From a virus, in UHGV virus genome UHGV-0198360: a DNA stretch of 37,260 nucleotides. One strand, given 5' to 3'. Below are positions 31,424-35,286 of the stretch, piece after piece (position 1 is the first letter of the stretch; every line of letters begins with the position of its first letter). Made by a program: the position numbers and the translations under genes. The notes beneath the pieces were generated by a model. It was not told the origin of the DNA. It searched no databases and was given only the letters and a program-made list of their open reading frames with translations.

Positions 31424-31595
31424 AGGCGTTTTGCCCTCCGGTTGTAGACCCCCACAATTGAAACCGCCCTACTGTGGTTACACGGAACCCAGCGGTTTGA
31501 TAATCTGCGTTCATACCGAAACAACGGAGTACCCGAAACCGGGATCATCCTGAGTTGCGGTAGACGGTTAAAAGCCGTTAAACTGCTCATGCGGA

Positions 31596-32147
31596 TTATT
31601 TCTCCATACTCGAAGAGTTGTTCGCCAAGGCGCCCGGAGCTGCACACTCGCGGGCGTCACTCTTTTCAGCGACACAAAAAACTCGATAAAGAAGCGCTAC
31701 GTGCTCCTGGAACTTCGCGATAACCTGATAGCTGTTTTCCTCAATCTGAGCGCGCTCATCTGCGTCAATCACCCCATCAGCCGTGGCTTTACGTACAAAA
31801 TTAGAATGACGGCCTATCCATTCGATGGACTCCATCAGGCGCTGGTTGATATCGGCGTTATCCAGATCATCAACATCTGCCAGCGGTACAAATACGCCCT
31901 GAGAATGGCGCGCAACGGCATCAGCGATATGAGTTGAACCACCAGCACGTTGTAAAACCATTGCCCAGCCCAGCGGGAAGATCTGATCGCCGTCAACACG
32001 AAGGCGGTTAAACAATGCGTTCTCTGTCACACCCAACCATTCCGCCGCCTCGGCATAACCACCAGGTAGATCGGTGATCGTTTTTTTTATCGCGGCCACC
32101 AGCCAGGCTGGCTGACGTTCGACTTTCCAAACAGGTTCGTTACCCAC
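31596..32147 (-). CDS. YdaT / CII-like regulatory protein (183 aa)
   Basis: ORF track; GTG start with SD AAGGGG; HTH-like segment AEWLGVTENALFNRL; second gene of the rightward early operon after Cro-like gene. Confidence 0.5.
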   Translation of the reverse strand: MGNEPVWKVERQPAWLVAAIKKTITDLPGGYAEAAEWLGVTENALFNRLRVDGDQIFPLGWAMVLQRAGGSTHIADAVARHSQGVFVPLADVDDLDNADINQRLMESIEWIGRHSNFVRKATADGVIDADERAQIEENSYQVIAKFQEHVALLYRVFCVAEKSDARECAAPGALANNSSSMEK

Positions 32148-32373: not shown

Positions 32374-32472
32374 TTTTCCCTCTGGAGTTAAGTAATGCAG
32401 TGCACTGATAGTAGGATATCTTACATTGATTGGTCAAGCACTCCTACATCAGATAATGGTAGGATTACCTAC
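32374..32472. promoter_or_regulatory. Divergent promoter/operator region (OR-like; PR for cro, PRM for cI)
   Basis: Minus strand TTGACC - 18 nt - TACTAT upstream of cro; plus strand GATAAT about 15 nt before the cI start; operator-like ATAGTAGGATATCTTACATT (32408-32427) and inverted TCCTAC...GTAGGA (32442-32464). Confidence 0.55.
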
Positions 32473-33129
32473 ATGAAAATGAATGATCGAATCCGAAGCA
32501 GACGAAAAGAGCTAAAGATGACGCAATCCGTCCTGGCAAAGCTCGTCGGGGTTAATCGCGTCACTATCACCGGTTGGGAATCCGGTGACTACAAACCGGG
32601 TGGTGAAAACCTCCAGGCGCTTGCGGCTGCATTAGAAAAGACACCGCAGTGGTTACTGGATGGAAAGGATGATGGAAGTCAGCAGCCACCAACTATGGAC
32701 CCGGAGCAAAGATTCGGAATTAGGTCAGTTCCCGTTCTCACATGGGTACAGGCCGGGGAATGGACGGCCAATTGCGTAGCGATCACAGAGCGGGACATTC
32801 ATGACTGGGTCTATACTTCGGCTGCCGTTTCTGAAAGTGCATTTGCACTCATTGTTCGCGGCGACTCGATGACCAACCCTACAGGTGCACCAAGTATTCC
32901 CGAAGGTTCTATTGTCGTTGTAGAACCTGATTTTGGTGATGCCAGTCAAGCTAATGGTAAAATTGTTATTGCACAGCTTATGGGCAGTGATGAAGCCACT
33001 ATTAAAAAGTTCGTCATCGATGGGCCGCTGAAATACCTAGTACCTCTTAACCCCAATTACAGGACTTTAGAAGTCAATGGCAACTGCCGATTGGTAGGAT
33101 TAGTAAGACAAGTAATAATGGATTTATAA
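32473..33129 (+). CDS. CI-like repressor with LexA-type S24 autopeptidase domain (218 aa)
   Basis: Track ORF trimmed to ATG at 32473 (SD AGGA); N-terminal HTH (MTQSVLAKLVGVNRVTITGWE), C-terminal S24 motifs (GDSM, KIVIAQL). Confidence 0.8.
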   Translation: MKMNDRIRSRRKELKMTQSVLAKLVGVNRVTITGWESGDYKPGGENLQALAAALEKTPQWLLDGKDDGSQQPPTMDPEQRFGIRSVPVLTWVQAGEWTANCVAITERDIHDWVYTSAAVSESAFALIVRGDSMTNPTGAPSIPEGSIVVVEPDFGDASQANGKIVIAQLMGSDEATIKKFVIDGPLKYLVPLNPNYRTLEVNGNCRLVGLVRQVIMDL

Positions 33130-33130
33130 G

Positions 33131-33156
33131 AAAACCGGGAATACCCGGTTTTTTTT
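33131..33156 (+). terminator. Intrinsic terminator after cI
   Basis: Hairpin ACCGGGAATACCCGGT followed by T8. Confidence 0.65.
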
Positions 33157-33162
33157 CGCCCC

Positions 33163-33219
33163 TCAATGTAAGTTATCCAACATTTCCACTTGACCCCAAA
33201 TAGTAAGTTATCCTACATT
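33163..33219 (+). promoter_or_regulatory. PL/OL-like promoter-operator region
   Basis: TTGACC (33190-33195) - 18 nt - TACATT (33214-33219); operator-like repeats AATGTAAGTTATCCAACATT (33165-33184) and ATAGTAAGTTATCCTACATT (33200-33219) resembling the OR site. Confidence 0.55.
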
Positions 33220-33324
33220 AATAACATTAACAGCGAACGGGCAGGACGCCCACGAAGTAGCCGCCGGTGGCGTATGAATAACCGGATGATTCGCTGAGCA
33301 TGACTAAAAACTGAGGGTTACACG

Positions 33325-33537
33325 ATGAATGCAGCACAACGGCGCAAGGCTTATCGCAAGCACCCCAAGGCTGGGGAAGTGGTGGTTTTACGTGGGGTTC
33401 CTCGCACAGTTCTGGGACCGTGCATGTTCAATATCTTTACCGGCGAAGAACGCAGCAAGCCATCAGTGAACCGCGTCAAGGTACAAATGACTGGCGGTTC
33501 TACAGCTGCTCCACTGATACGCAATTTGACGTTTTAA
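33325..33537 (+). CDS. N-like antiterminator candidate with arginine-rich N-terminal motif (70 aa)
   Basis: ORF track; SD GAGGG; N-terminus MNAAQRRKAYRK resembles lambda N ARM (MDAQTRRRERRAEK); first gene downstream of PL-like promoter. Confidence 0.5.
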   Translation: MNAAQRRKAYRKHPKAGEVVVLRGVPRTVLGPCMFNIFTGEERSKPSVNRVKVQMTGGSTAAPLIRNLTF

Positions 33538-33766
33538 CAGCAGACAGGTGTCTTCGGGAGGGGTAACAGAGGCGCGGCCTGATTAACCGCAACTCATAGT
33601 CAAATTCCTATAGCTGGTGGCGATACCCAAGCCAGGAATACCAAAACCAGCAGGAGTGTTAGGGAACAGGGTCAATCCCCCCCCTTAGCACCCCGCCCGA
33701 AGATACCTACCACCGCGCCTGATGTGGTTAAAAGCAGGCCAAAGCAATAACAAGTAACTCCCTGTT

Positions 33767-33815
33767 CTGGCGGCCCGGTGTTTTCCCGTTTGTCCGGTCA
33801 CCGCCAGCCTTTTTC
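33767..33815 (+). terminator. Candidate tL1-like terminator downstream of N-like gene
   Basis: Inverted repeat CTGGCGG...CCGCCAG with internal CCGG/CCGG stem, followed by CCTTTTTC. Confidence 0.4.
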
Positions 33816-34154
33816 AGGGCACAACGACGAGAGCATTGACGAGCAAGGCATAAGTGCTGGTTCGATTCCAGACAGTCCCATTCAGTTGGGAGGGTTGGGC
33901 AGGGAAAAGGTTCGTTCGATTCGAACACCGGCAGTGCTCTCTTCGTTGTGGTGAATGCGCAGGCTGATGCGCTAAACCGTGAGGGAGTGTCCCGAAAGGG
34001 TGCGTCACTGGTAATCAACCCATGCCGGAATATCGCAGTACCGGCCACCACAACCAAATCACGCTTAGGACCGTGATAACCGTAGTTCCAGTATTGCTGT
34101 GAGTAGTCTTGGCGGTACCAGGGTCTTCAACCTTATGCAAGGGGGACGAAGATA

Positions 34155-34382
34155 ATGTTCTACCTCGGTACCGCCCTTTTTACGCAACAGAAAAGGGCAT
34201 CACCGGGCGACGGGCTCATAACCCAATCCACCCGGGCAAAAAGAAAGCGGTATCTGCAAGCCGCCGACCAATGCAGGTGCCCTTCTCTGTTGTGTATGGA
34301 GAAAGTTCGGCGGTGGCAGCCGCCACAACTTCGTGTATGGACTAAAACCTTGTGCAGAGGAAAGTTAAATGAAATTACCTAA
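34155..34382 (+). CDS. Possible small basic protein (75 aa) upstream of rdgC
   Basis: ORF track; SD GGGGGA 8 nt before ATG; stop overlaps rdgC start; composition somewhat atypical. Confidence 0.3.
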   Translation: MFYLGTALFTQQKRASPGDGLITQSTRAKRKRYLQAADQCRCPSLLCMEKVRRWQPPQLRVWTKTLCRGKLNEIT

Positions 34383-35286
34383 GTTCCGTAACGCAATCGT
34401 GTACCGCGCCACACTACCTGGCATTGAAGCAATTGAAGGCCATCTTCTCGAACTCCCCTATTCTGAGATAGGTGAGACTGAATTGTCGCGAACATCTTTT
34501 GTGCCTAATCCAATCACCGGCGAACTGGTTACCCCTATTACTGGCGGTTACGCCATAGTTGTACGTCGCGATCAGAAAATTATTCCGCAGCATGTGCTTA
34601 TGAAAGAAGCCACGGCACGTATTCAAAATATTGAGAACATGTCCGGGCATAAATTAAAACGTGCCGAGCGTTTAGCCATTATTGATAGTGTTCTGGCGGA
34701 GTTATGCAAAAAAGCATTTGTGAAGTCGACGCTGATCCTGGCGCTGTATAGCACTGATGAAAAATTACTGGTGATTAACACGACCAACAAGCAAATCGCC
34801 AGCATGGTGTGCGCAATGCTGATTAAGGTTGTCGGTTCAGTGAAAACAGAAACAATCAACATTAGTGATATCAAGAATGGACTGACTACACGCCTGAAGA
34901 ACTACATCAATGGTGCAGCCAATGCATTCGAAGGATTCACTGTCGGGAATTATATTCAGCTATCACGCTACGCAGATCAAAAGGAAGTTATTCGCTACTC
35001 AGCTGAGCATGAGTCAATTCAAAGCGAACTGGCCGATAGCCTTAGTAGTAGTTTCACTGCTGATAAAATGGAGTTATCCGGTTGCGGTGTGACCTTCATT
35101 CTGACCGAAAATTTCCATTTTTCGCGCATCAATACCCAATCTCAGACATTTAATGATGAAGATGACAAAGCATTCCAGTGGCGTCATCAGGCAGGCGCTG
35201 ACCTTTTCCAATTCAGCAAGGTAGTTAATTTGATGTGTGACCTTCTTTCATACAAAGAAGAACAGCCACAAAAACCAGCAGCATAA
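34369..35286 (+). CDS. rdgC: Recombination-associated protein RdgC-like (305 aa)
   Basis: ORF track; SD GAGGAAA; size (~303 aa) and N-terminal pattern (MKLPKFRNAIVYRA...) matching RdgC-type proteins. Confidence 0.6.
   Translation: MKLPKFRNAIVYRATLPGIEAIEGHLLELPYSEIGETELSRTSFVPNPITGELVTPITGGYAIVVRRDQKIIPQHVLMKEATARIQNIENMSGHKLKRAERLAIIDSVLAELCKKAFVKSTLILALYSTDEKLLVINTTNKQIASMVCAMLIKVVGSVKTETINISDIKNGLTTRLKNYINGAANAFEGFTVGNYIQLSRYADQKEVIRYSAEHESIQSELADSLSSSFTADKMELSGCGVTFILTENFHFSRINTQSQTFNDEDDKAFQWRHQAGADLFQFSKVVNLMCDLLSYKEEQPQKPAA

Follow-up and report, generated by a model that had tools for sequence, protein, structure and literature searches.

Does a motif of about 20 bp that recurs on both sides of a cI-type repressor gene mark the repressor-binding sites of a temperate-phage switch and, if so, how closely does that switch follow the known ones? 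A preliminary description of this locus reported three copies of the motif, each overlapping a TTGACC promoter directed away from cI, and read them as operators laid over PR and PL with cI directly between OR and OL. We examined this reading across the whole 37,260-bp stretch of DNA analysed (the window), using the sites themselves, the encoded proteins, related prophages and the immunity regions of P22 and lambda (Table 1). The sequence evidence indicates that the 20-bp repeats are almost certainly the OR and OL repressor-binding sites of an ordinary lambda/P22-type prophage switch. The earlier interpretation appears incomplete rather than wrong, since OR seems to hold three sites and only one OL site lies over PL.

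Table 1. Features of the immunity region and of the start of the PL transcript, in window coordinates.
Feature	Coordinates	Strand	Description
cro-like gene, 65 aa	32176..32373	-	first gene of the PR transcript; Pfam P22_Cro, 2.9e-21
PR	32408..32437	-	-35 TTGACC 32437..32432, 18-nt spacer, -10 TACTAT 32413..32408
OR1	32408..32427	.	ATAGTAGGATATCTTACATT; over PR spacer and -10
OR2 (putative, degenerate)	32431..32450	.	right half TCCTACAT, a perfect half-site; left half poor, holds PR -35
OR3	32456..32475	.	ATGGTAGGATTACCTACATG; PWM 22.0 bits; last three bases are the cI ATG (32473)
candidate PRM	32457..32465	+	extended -10 TGGTAGGAT within OR3; invariant in relatives
cI repressor gene, 218 aa	32473..33129	+	HTH_3 3.5e-15, Peptidase_S24 7.2e-20
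cI HTH helices 2-3	32521-32586		
cI Ala-Gly cleavage site	32746-32763		in VQAGEW
cI Ser	32860-32874		of GDSMT
cI Lys	33001-33012		of IKKF
intrinsic terminator of cI transcript	33128..33155	+	12-bp stem, AAUA loop, U8
OL2	33165..33184	.	AATGTAAGTTATCCAACATT; 5 bp upstream of PL -35; centre 35 bp from OL1
PL	33190..33219	+	-35 TTGACC 33190-33195, 18-nt spacer, -10 TACATT 33214-33219
OL1	33200..33219	.	ATAGTAAGTTATCCTACATT; over PL spacer and -10
structured leader RNA, 69 nt	33229..33297	+	predicted 5' end of PL transcript; not part of the operators

Copies and symmetry of the probable operator motif

Searched at zero mismatches, the pattern ATAGTARGWTATCYTACATT occurs at 32408-32427 and 33200-33219, and these two copies stand as originally described: both coincide with a promoter. 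The third reported copy, at 33165-33184, departs from the degenerate consensus by three mismatches, and instead of lying over the promoter it stops 5 bp short of the -35 at 33190. Beyond 32408, 33165 and 33200, neither strand of the 37,260 bp holds a further match to the pattern, for which 100 shuffles give an expectation of 0.00. A PWM scan, with a PWM trained on the same sites, returned four sites at 22-27.6 bits, followed by a next-best score of 9.5 bits that falls below the shuffle maxima, and no operator copies elsewhere in the window. The preliminary description had missed a strong copy at 32456-32475, together with a degenerate one at 32431-32450. The sites are imperfect palindromes of 20 bp with the half-site AWKGTARGAT and 10-14 of 20 positions self-complementary, and this dyad-symmetric motif is found on either side of cI and nowhere else. 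An 11-mer at 33092, in the 3' end of cI, repeats the left half of OR3 exactly (TGGTAGGATTA) and was considered as a third OL site; it is unconserved at synonymous positions even in relatives that are 95-98% identical, so we regard it as a chance match and rejected it.

Promoters and arrangement of the sites

The claim of matching promoters is borne out, as TTGACC-N18-TACWWT occurs exactly twice in the window (0.02 expected), at 32437..32408 on the minus strand and 33190..33219 on the plus strand. Both score 9/12 in the promoter scan, their 18-bp spacer being non-optimal; at the level of generic promoters, the scan gave 3 sites where 2.3 were expected, which is not significant, and the region is not enriched for promoter-like matches. 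Transcription from PR would begin near 32401. For PL, we place the probable start at A33226 by analogy with P22, where PL is annotated to begin at the A of ATCAGCAGGACGC, a position 7 nt past the -10 and homologous to the window's ATTAACAGCG.

The cro and cI genes are divergent, with their start codons 99 bp apart, and the short regulatory region between them carries tandem dyad sites about 23-25 bp apart over PR and the candidate PRM, provided that the putative OR2 is counted as a site (its centre lies 23 bp from that of OR1 and 25 bp from that of OR3). With OR3 and OR2 also present, OR would be tripartite, comprising two strong sites and one degenerate one. The promoter scan made no call for PRM, whose extended -10 was read by eye; by analogy with P22, such a promoter would yield a leaderless or near-leaderless cI mRNA starting at about 32472-32473. 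On the far side of cI, an intrinsic terminator (-15.5 kcal/mol, z = -3.78) is followed by OL2, so that cI does lie directly between two operator clusters, as had been proposed; relatives carry a hairpin and T-run at the same place, with differing sequence. The OL cluster overlaps PL and contains two sites, not three.

The repressor and Cro proteins

The product of cI combines a helix-turn-helix domain with an S24 autocleavage domain containing the Ala-Gly bond and the Ser/Lys dyad. Its N-terminal domain matches that of P22 C2 at 1e-14. For the C-terminal domain the match is to lambda cI (1e-20), in which VQAGEW, GDSMT and IKKF align to A111-G112, S149 and K192. The divergent cro-like gene belongs to PHROG 409 (transcriptional regulator) and is 62-98% identical in relatives. 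A CII-like (CP76) gene adjoins cro. Protein domains, site symmetry, conservation and a layout like that of P22 immC all agree with a cI-type repressor gene placed between OR/PR and OL/PL.

Conservation among related prophages

We drew footprints from related prophages, comprising 57 distinct OR sequences and 47 distinct OL sequences. Across the 57 OR sequences, conservation reaches 1.91 bits per column in OR1, 1.88 in OR3, 1.84 in the -35 and about 1.6 in the OR2 halves, compared with 0.43-0.78 in the spacers and 0.9 in the cro leader. OL2, TTGACm and OL1 are conserved among the 47 OL sequences, and OL2 was not an anchor of that alignment. The 18-bp length of the promoter spacer is kept in more than 50 distinct relatives, and the spacers between sites vary.

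The recognition helix of the repressor, GVNRVT[IV]TGWESGDY, is invariant in relatives. Among those with less than 90% overall cI identity, identity is 11-36% in the linker and 42-73% in the C-terminal domain. Loci L061-L074 combine the same N-terminal domain and operators with a C-terminal domain that is very different, overall identity of cI being about 40-48%. Phage mEp390, Yersinia phages YeP1-3, E. coli phage vB_EcoM-720R4 and Stx phages of the Stx2a_1447/WGPS2 type share the operator motif and the OR/OL layout. Their cI proteins are 60-68% identical overall to that of the window, with the recognition helix again unchanged; they differ in spacers, in the cI linker and C-terminal domain, and in the genes and RNA elements downstream of PL. 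No DNA-level relative of the whole immunity region was found in 50,697 phage records or 5,426 E. coli genomes, in which the PL leader alone was matched. The host of this prophage is probably Kluyvera. In the literature searched, the operator strings appear in no paper, no operator data were found for the mEp390, YeP, 720R4 or Stx relatives, and no mEp390 paper concerns immunity.

The conservation of operators and recognition helix together gives indirect support to the prediction that CI and Cro would physically bind these operators and repress PR and PL. A lambdoid (HK97/mEp-like) prophage immunity region, with CI acting at OR1-3 and OL1-2 over PR, PRM and PL, is an interpretation that we hold with high confidence. 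Counting against it are an OL that has two sites, spaced by 35 bp, where lambda and P22 have three, the modest scores of both promoters with their non-optimal spacers, and a PRM that the scan did not call.

Alternative explanations

An unlikely but not negligible alternative is that OR is bipartite, with only OR1 and OR3 serving as operators and the block between them consisting of the PR -35 (GGTCAA) and PRM sequence. Only about 2-5 of the 10 positions in the left half of OR2 agree with the half-site, the whole site is self-complementary at 4/20 and it has no score in the PWM scan of the window. Conservation of GTCAAG is explained by the PR -35, to which alone that of the left half could be due, and some relatives differ at the final two bases of TCCTACAT (TCCTACCT, TCTTACCC). 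The right half nevertheless is an exact half-site at the position of P22 OR2, with the P22 spacing to both neighbours, it holds 1.59 bits per column against 0.78 in the adjacent 5-bp spacer, and phage 720R4 has a fuller match at the middle site, AATGTCAAGAATCCTACAT.

The resemblance between the two flanks could also reflect duplication or common descent of the promoters, with no protein-binding site involved. Aligned in the same orientation, PR and PL match at 22 of 30 bases, with identical -35 hexamers and equal 18-bp spacers, and because they are alike over their whole length, some of what OR1 has in common with OL1 could indeed be of this origin. As an explanation of the shared sequence as a whole it is very improbable: in OR3 and OL2 the palindrome stands apart from any promoter frame that matches, all sites are dyad-symmetric, the conserved promoter columns track the palindrome rather than non-operator spacer bases (for instance the 4-6 variable bases that follow the -35), and the operators and recognition helix stay constant where all else diverges. 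The least probable alternative, which we consider scarcely credible, is that the palindromes are bound by host LexA or by the phage CII-like activator instead of CI and Cro. The proximity of the CII-like gene to cro would suit it, as would the TGT...ACA within the motif, which resembles the LexA box, a palindrome with the consensus CTGT-N8-ACAG; yet TGT and ACA are 10 nt apart here rather than 8, and the C and G of CTGT/ACAG are absent. In relatives, even where the C-terminal domain has been swapped, the sites moreover follow the N-terminal domain of CI, and those on the far side lie past the cI terminator, where they would be unable to serve a CII-dependent promoter for cI establishment.

Under the CI operator model, a CI dimer would bind the 20-bp imperfect palindromes through its P22-C2-like helix-turn-helix. 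Occupation of OR1, OR2, OL1 and OL2 in the lysogen would shut off PL and also PR, with its cro, cII-like and replication genes; OR2 would probably be filled cooperatively via the lambda-like C-terminal domain, CI at OR2 would probably assist PRM, and filling of OR3 would limit cI expression. RecA-stimulated self-cleavage of CI at Ala94-Gly95 would lead to prophage induction, after which Cro would occupy the same sites.

Comparison with P22 and lambda

P22 immC has the same gene order of cro, OR, repressor gene and OL/PL, and in each phage the centres of neighbouring OR sites are 23 and 25 bp apart. OR3 meets the repressor ATG in both, abutting that of c2 in P22 and including that of cI in the window; P22 PRM starts 4 nt before the c2 ATG and gives a near-leaderless mRNA of the kind predicted here. 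P22 PL likewise has TTGACC as its -35 and carries OL1 across its spacer and -10, and the two PL transcripts have homologous 5' ends. The specificity differs: P22 operators (ATTAAAGAACACTTAAAT, ACTAAAGGAATCTTTAGT and ATTTAAGATGACTTAACT at OR, as taken from the record) are 18 bp with half-site ATTTAAG, against 20 bp and AWKGTARG in the window, none of whose sites fits the P22 C2 operator. The recognition helix of the window reads NRVTITGW, its counterpart in P22 C2 being SNVAISQW. Relative to PR, the window sites are shifted by about 20 bp compared with P22, so that OR1 lies on the spacer and -10 and OR2 on the -35, as in lambda. Unlike P22, the window has two rather than three OL sites, an intrinsic terminator between cI and OL, a cI C-terminal domain closer to lambda cI, and neither gene 24 (N) nor nutL boxA/boxB after PL.

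Lambda follows the same logic, in that cI and cro diverge from a tripartite OR, with OR1 over the PR spacer and -10, OR2 over the -35, and cI co-directional with PL. A leaderless cI mRNA, as in lambda, is likely in the window as well. The differences lie in the N-terminal domain, which is of another subfamily in the window (HTH_3, P22-like), in the operators, which are 17 bp in lambda and unrelated in sequence to those of 20 bp, and in the left operator region, where lambda has three OL sites and an N/nut system and the window has two sites and no N/nut. The absence of rexAB between cI and OL in the window leaves OL and OR about 790 bp apart, compared with 2.4 kb in lambda.

The predicted PL transcript

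Just downstream of PL, the window encodes a structured leader RNA, which folds into a closing helix (P1), a GGC/GCC hairpin (P2) and a covarying hairpin (P3). Its covariance model (R1, built from alignment A1) has a single match in the window, of 96 bits. P3 shows double compensatory changes at three pairs, with 96% of cells paired compared with 19-41% in slid controls, and in 46 distinct loci the leader lies past cI on the plus strand. Further on, about 830 nt (33540-34368) consist of shuffled, tRNA-like structured RNA modules, cassettes of 115-165 nt that are independently shuffled and each closed by a 19-22-bp stem; some contain hairpins like a tRNA T-arm, and one contains a copy of the initiator-tRNA anticodon stem-loop. 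Module B has a hairpin at 33770-33818, and the modules occur 148 times in phages and 719 times in E. coli. Searched with the whole window, Rfam gave nothing at gathering thresholds, and with 33150-34450 it gave nothing at E<=1; ARAGORN found no tRNA at default settings and made weak calls only at its 80% threshold, and the leader and module strings are in no paper of the literature searched. The Pas sRNAs (bioRxiv 10.64898/2026.05.13.724894) are late-region and unrelated.

No N/nut system was recognised at PL: no boxA or boxB was seen by eye in the leader, and no N-like protein was found among the ORFs downstream of PL to 37216. The ORF at 33325-33537 has an arginine-rich N-terminus, but it has no Pfam or PHROG match and is absent from sibling prophages, marking it as an insertion, and we rejected it as an N analogue. 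The closest likeness is to putL of HK022 (PMC9378689), a conserved structured RNA of about 70 nt that begins within a few nucleotides of where PL starts and belongs to a phage that has no N gene. The window leader is likewise about 70 nt long, begins a few nucleotides from the predicted PL start and is accompanied by no N gene. HK022 put, though, consists of two side-by-side stem-loops (PMC9378689), in contrast to a closing helix with two internal hairpins; R1 has no match in the HK022 immunity region and no second match in the window, and we rejected the leader both as a homologue of HK022 put and as one of a putL/putR pair. We offer antitermination by the leader as a hypothesis.

Implications for this immunity type

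These analyses define the operator sequence, site layout and promoters of an immunity type without operator data in the literature searched. Its half-site, AWKGTARGAT, suggests an uncharacterised immunity specificity, and the type is common to mEp390, the Yersinia YeP phages, some Stx2 phages and many prophages of Kluyvera, Enterobacter, Kosakonia and Rahnella; given their shared recognition helix and operators, phages of this type are predicted to be homo-immune. DNA-binding domain and operators travel as one module that recombines with different C-terminal domains. In terms of mechanism, nothing is added to the lambda/P22 model.

The RNAs downstream of PL are both a more unusual and a more valuable lead than the operators. 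With a PL start at about 33226, widespread, unannotated structured RNAs would be the first early-left product in these phages. As a tentative reading, less likely than not, PL would drive about 1.1 kb of conserved non-coding RNA with no N-type gene, such that the operators would control an undescribed early RNA programme, in which the leader may represent a new class of put-like cis-antiterminator or a platform for a regulator, and the cassettes may mimic tRNAs, perhaps serving as decoys against host defences that target tRNA.

Predicted operators and promoters on both sides of cI

The preliminary description placed cI between two operator clusters, and the gene found there does encode a repressor, a 218-aa product with HTH_3 (3.5e-15) and Peptidase_S24 (7.2e-20) domains. 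Compared with solved structures, its N-terminal 65 residues resemble the P22 C2 DNA-binding domain (1e-14) and residues 86-211 the lambda cI C-terminal domain (1e-20), with the Ala-Gly cleavage site and the catalytic Ser and Lys all aligned to the latter. The divergent gene encodes a 65-aa P22_Cro protein (2.9e-21), followed by a CII-like CP76 protein. An in-frame ATG at 32395 was rejected as the cI start: the start at 32473 is kept in all relatives, and the HTH runs from residue 7. A mechanically called ORF adds 26 upstream codons (32395-32472, + strand) that span OR1-OR3, the predicted operators on the cro side, and automatic annotation from ATG 32395 could thus make cI too long at its 5' end. 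Between the cI stop and OL2, the nearer to cI of the two far-side sites, lies a terminator with a 12-bp stem and U8 (-15.5 kcal/mol, z = -3.8).

PR and PL, the promoters pointing away from cI, have the hexamers and 18-nt spacers first attributed to them. The pattern TTGACC-N18-TACWWT occurs twice in the window, at PR and PL only, against 0.02 expected; generic promoter-like matches are not enriched there (3 versus 2.3 expected).

The degenerate 20-mer originally proposed as the operator matches exactly at OR1 and OL1 and with three mismatches at OL2, and a search of both strands of all 37,260 bp finds it nowhere else, shuffles expecting no match. Contrary to the statement that every copy overlaps a promoter, OL2 stops 5 bp short of the -35 and overlaps no hexamer. 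Two sites had been overlooked: a fourth strong copy, OR3, which ends in the cI start codon, and a degenerate middle site, OR2. Every strong site is an imperfect palindrome, self-complementary at 10-14 of its 20 positions, and the eight half-sites give the consensus A-W-K-G-T-A-R-G-A-T. A PWM built from the same half-sites, which is circular for the four strong sites but informative for the remaining window, scores these at 22-27.6 bits and its best match elsewhere at 9.5 bits, under the shuffled-sequence maxima. We discarded a half-site within cI at 33092 as a chance match, synonymous positions there not being conserved. The OR sites are centred at 32417.5, 32440.5 and 32465.5 (spacings of 23 and 25 bp); the two OL sites lie 35 bp apart, about one helical turn beyond the usual 24 bp, and would therefore keep to the same face of the DNA.

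Features of the immunity region and downstream RNA elements. Information content (bits per column) was computed over 57 distinct OR sequences.
Feature	Position	Strand	Bits per column	Remark
Gap in PR operon	31424-31596	-		about 170 nt
cro leader			0.90	
PR -10	32413..32408	-		TACTAT
OR1	32408-32427		1.91	
PR -35	32437..32432	-	1.84	TTGACC
OR2	32431-32450		1.64 and 1.59 (halves)	
OR3	32456-32475		1.88	ATGGTAGGATTACCTACATG
Inter-site spacers in OR			0.43 and 0.78	
Extended -10, candidate PRM	32457-32465			TGGTAGGAT, inside OR3
OL2	33165-33184			
PL -35	33190-33195	+		TTGACC
OL1	33200-33219			
PL -10	33214-33219	+		TACATT
Leader RNA	33229-33297	+		69 nt
ORF, 70 aa	33325-33537	+		
RNA module array	33540-34368	+		about 830 nt; z = -4.9
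Module A	33546-33708	+		
Module B	about 33708-33826	+		3' end: terminator-like hairpin, then T-run
Module C	33820-33950	+		z = -4.7; 6 compensatory pairs; + strand preferred
Module F	34181-34296	+		z = -4.9; 8 compensatory pairs; + strand preferred

Comparison with P22 and alternative readings

The P22 record gives OR1-3 as a 66-bp stretch next to the c2 ATG and puts the PRM start 4 nt ahead of this codon; it also annotates PL, and places OL1-3 directly after c2. In the sequence itself, the three sites of P22 OR can be read as 18-mers with 5- and 7-bp gaps, so that their centre spacings, 23 and 25 bp, equal those in the window. P22 PL likewise has a TTGACC -35, and OL1 falls within its spacer and -10; the annotated PL start, the A of ATCAGCAGGACGC, 7 nt past the -10, corresponds to A33226. 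The P22 operators themselves differ (ATTTAAG, 18 bp), as do three further features: the window's sites are shifted by about 20 bp relative to PR, giving a lambda-like PR side, there are two OL sites rather than three, and a terminator separates cI from OL.

This comparison bears on whether OR is bipartite, its middle block being merely the PR -35 and PRM sequence, which we consider improbable given the perfect conserved half-site that the block holds where P22 has OR2. If the shared sequence instead reflected promoter paralogy with no protein binding, the palindrome should keep to the promoter frame, and its presence outside that frame at OR3 and OL2 contradicts this reading. Nor do LexA or the CII-like activator account for the palindromes: the TGT-N10-ACA spacing is wrong for the former, and the latter cannot explain the sites beyond the cI terminator.

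With the palindromes read as repressor operators, CI dimers at OR1/OR2 and OL1/OL2 would block the -35 and -10 regions of PR and PL. OR2, with one good half-site, probably depends on CI at OR1 for cooperative binding mediated by the lambda-like C-terminal domain. The extended -10 inside OR3 is a candidate PRM, which would yield a leaderless cI mRNA starting at about 32472-32473; occupancy of OR3 would thus autorepress it, and CI on OR2, at about -32 (about -30 for the P22 counterpart), could activate it. SOS-induced self-cleavage of CI would end repression, and Cro would then use the same sites.

RNA elements downstream of PL

Downstream of PL we found no N gene, and no boxA or boxB is evident in the leader, which begins 3 nt past the inferred PL start. 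The leader is present, unannotated, at 90-97% DNA identity in ST64B, 118970_sal3 and 264 E. coli genomes, and 46 distinct loci carry it past cI on the + strand. Its fold consists of a closing helix and two hairpins, one with a GGC/GCC stem and the other (P3) with a covarying CCGGU/ACCGG stem and a conserved 12-nt loop. P3 shows compensatory double changes at three pairs, with 96% of cells paired versus 19-41% when partners are slid, and none of 500 shuffles reached the leader's covariation score. A search with its covariance model gives a single copy in the window and no match in HK022 or mEp390-type leaders, and Rfam yields none. The first 30 nt or so resemble the P22 PL leader (CAGGACGC...GUAGCC) and that of lambda; a put-like role is our hypothesis. 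In mEp390 (locus L001, 2290-2400) and six related loci (L046, L047, L050, L051, L053, L054), the equivalent post-PL position is taken by another conserved element (GTATGGCACATGCG...GGGTAGCCGGAATGTGCAAG); visual comparison shows short strings in common with HK022 putL (CAUGCGUCG..AGCGG), and the element could be a put-like RNA that has already been published. In the PR operon, the gap that separates the cII-like gene from a conserved 59-aa ORF (PHROG 1343) carries strings (CAGGAUGAUC, GGUAUGAACGC) reminiscent of the PL leader and putL, and the leader covariance model has no match in it.

The 70-aa ORF that follows has an arginine-rich N-terminus (MNAAQRRKAYRK) and matches no family in Pfam or PHROG; the sequence of sibling prophages runs directly from ...GATGATTCGCTGAC to AGGTGTCTTCGGG (window 33546), which marks it as an insertion particular to this prophage. 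The array beyond it, upstream of rdgC, holds no convincing ORF and folds far better than shuffles. Its modules, each closed by a 19-22-bp stem, are present, absent or reordered among sibling prophages; 148 phage records and 719 of 5,426 E. coli genomes contain them without annotation. Stx2a_1447 carries them at the equivalent place after cI, and in SPC32H one adjoins a genuine tRNA-Arg. Two hairpins of module C are T-arm-like, their loops reading TTCGATT, and module F includes CGGGCTCATAACCC, which resembles the E. coli initiator-tRNA anticodon stem-loop. The modules match nothing in Rfam at E<=1 and no tRNA by ARAGORN at default settings; we hypothesise that they may act as tRNA mimics.

Conservation among relatives

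The immunity region has no DNA-level relative among phage records and complete E. coli genomes. Protein searches recovered cI genes 60-68% identical in Yersinia phages YeP1-3, mEp390, vB_EcoM-720R4 and Stx2 phages, 72 related IMG/VR loci and, among 11 matches to enterobacterial genomes, 6 loci with cI identity of at least 51%. One of these loci, in Kluyvera cryocrescens, has a 97% identical cI, which suggests Kluyvera as the host. All relatives share the cro-side order OR1, GTCAAG (the PR -35), TCCTACAT, OR3 with ATG, and the far-side order terminator, OL2, TTGACm, OL1, with 18-bp promoter spacers.

Although the type of system is very well known, its operator specificity is uncharacterised, since neither the operator strings nor an analysis of mEp390 immunity was found in the searched literature. 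Among relatives below 90% overall identity, repressor identity is 66-86% in the N-terminal domain, 11-36% in the linker and 42-73% in the C-terminal domain, and the recognition helix, GVNRVT[IV]TGWESGDY, does not vary; Cro identity among relatives is 62-98%. Extra genes lie between cI and OL/PL in L048, L059 and the IMG/VR loci L061-L074. These last (cI at 1501-2150) have a very different C-terminal domain, with overall cI identity of about 40-48%, yet retain the same N-terminal domain and OR operators. The DNA-binding domain and its operators thus appear to act and recombine as a single module, as they should if the motif is what the repressor binds.
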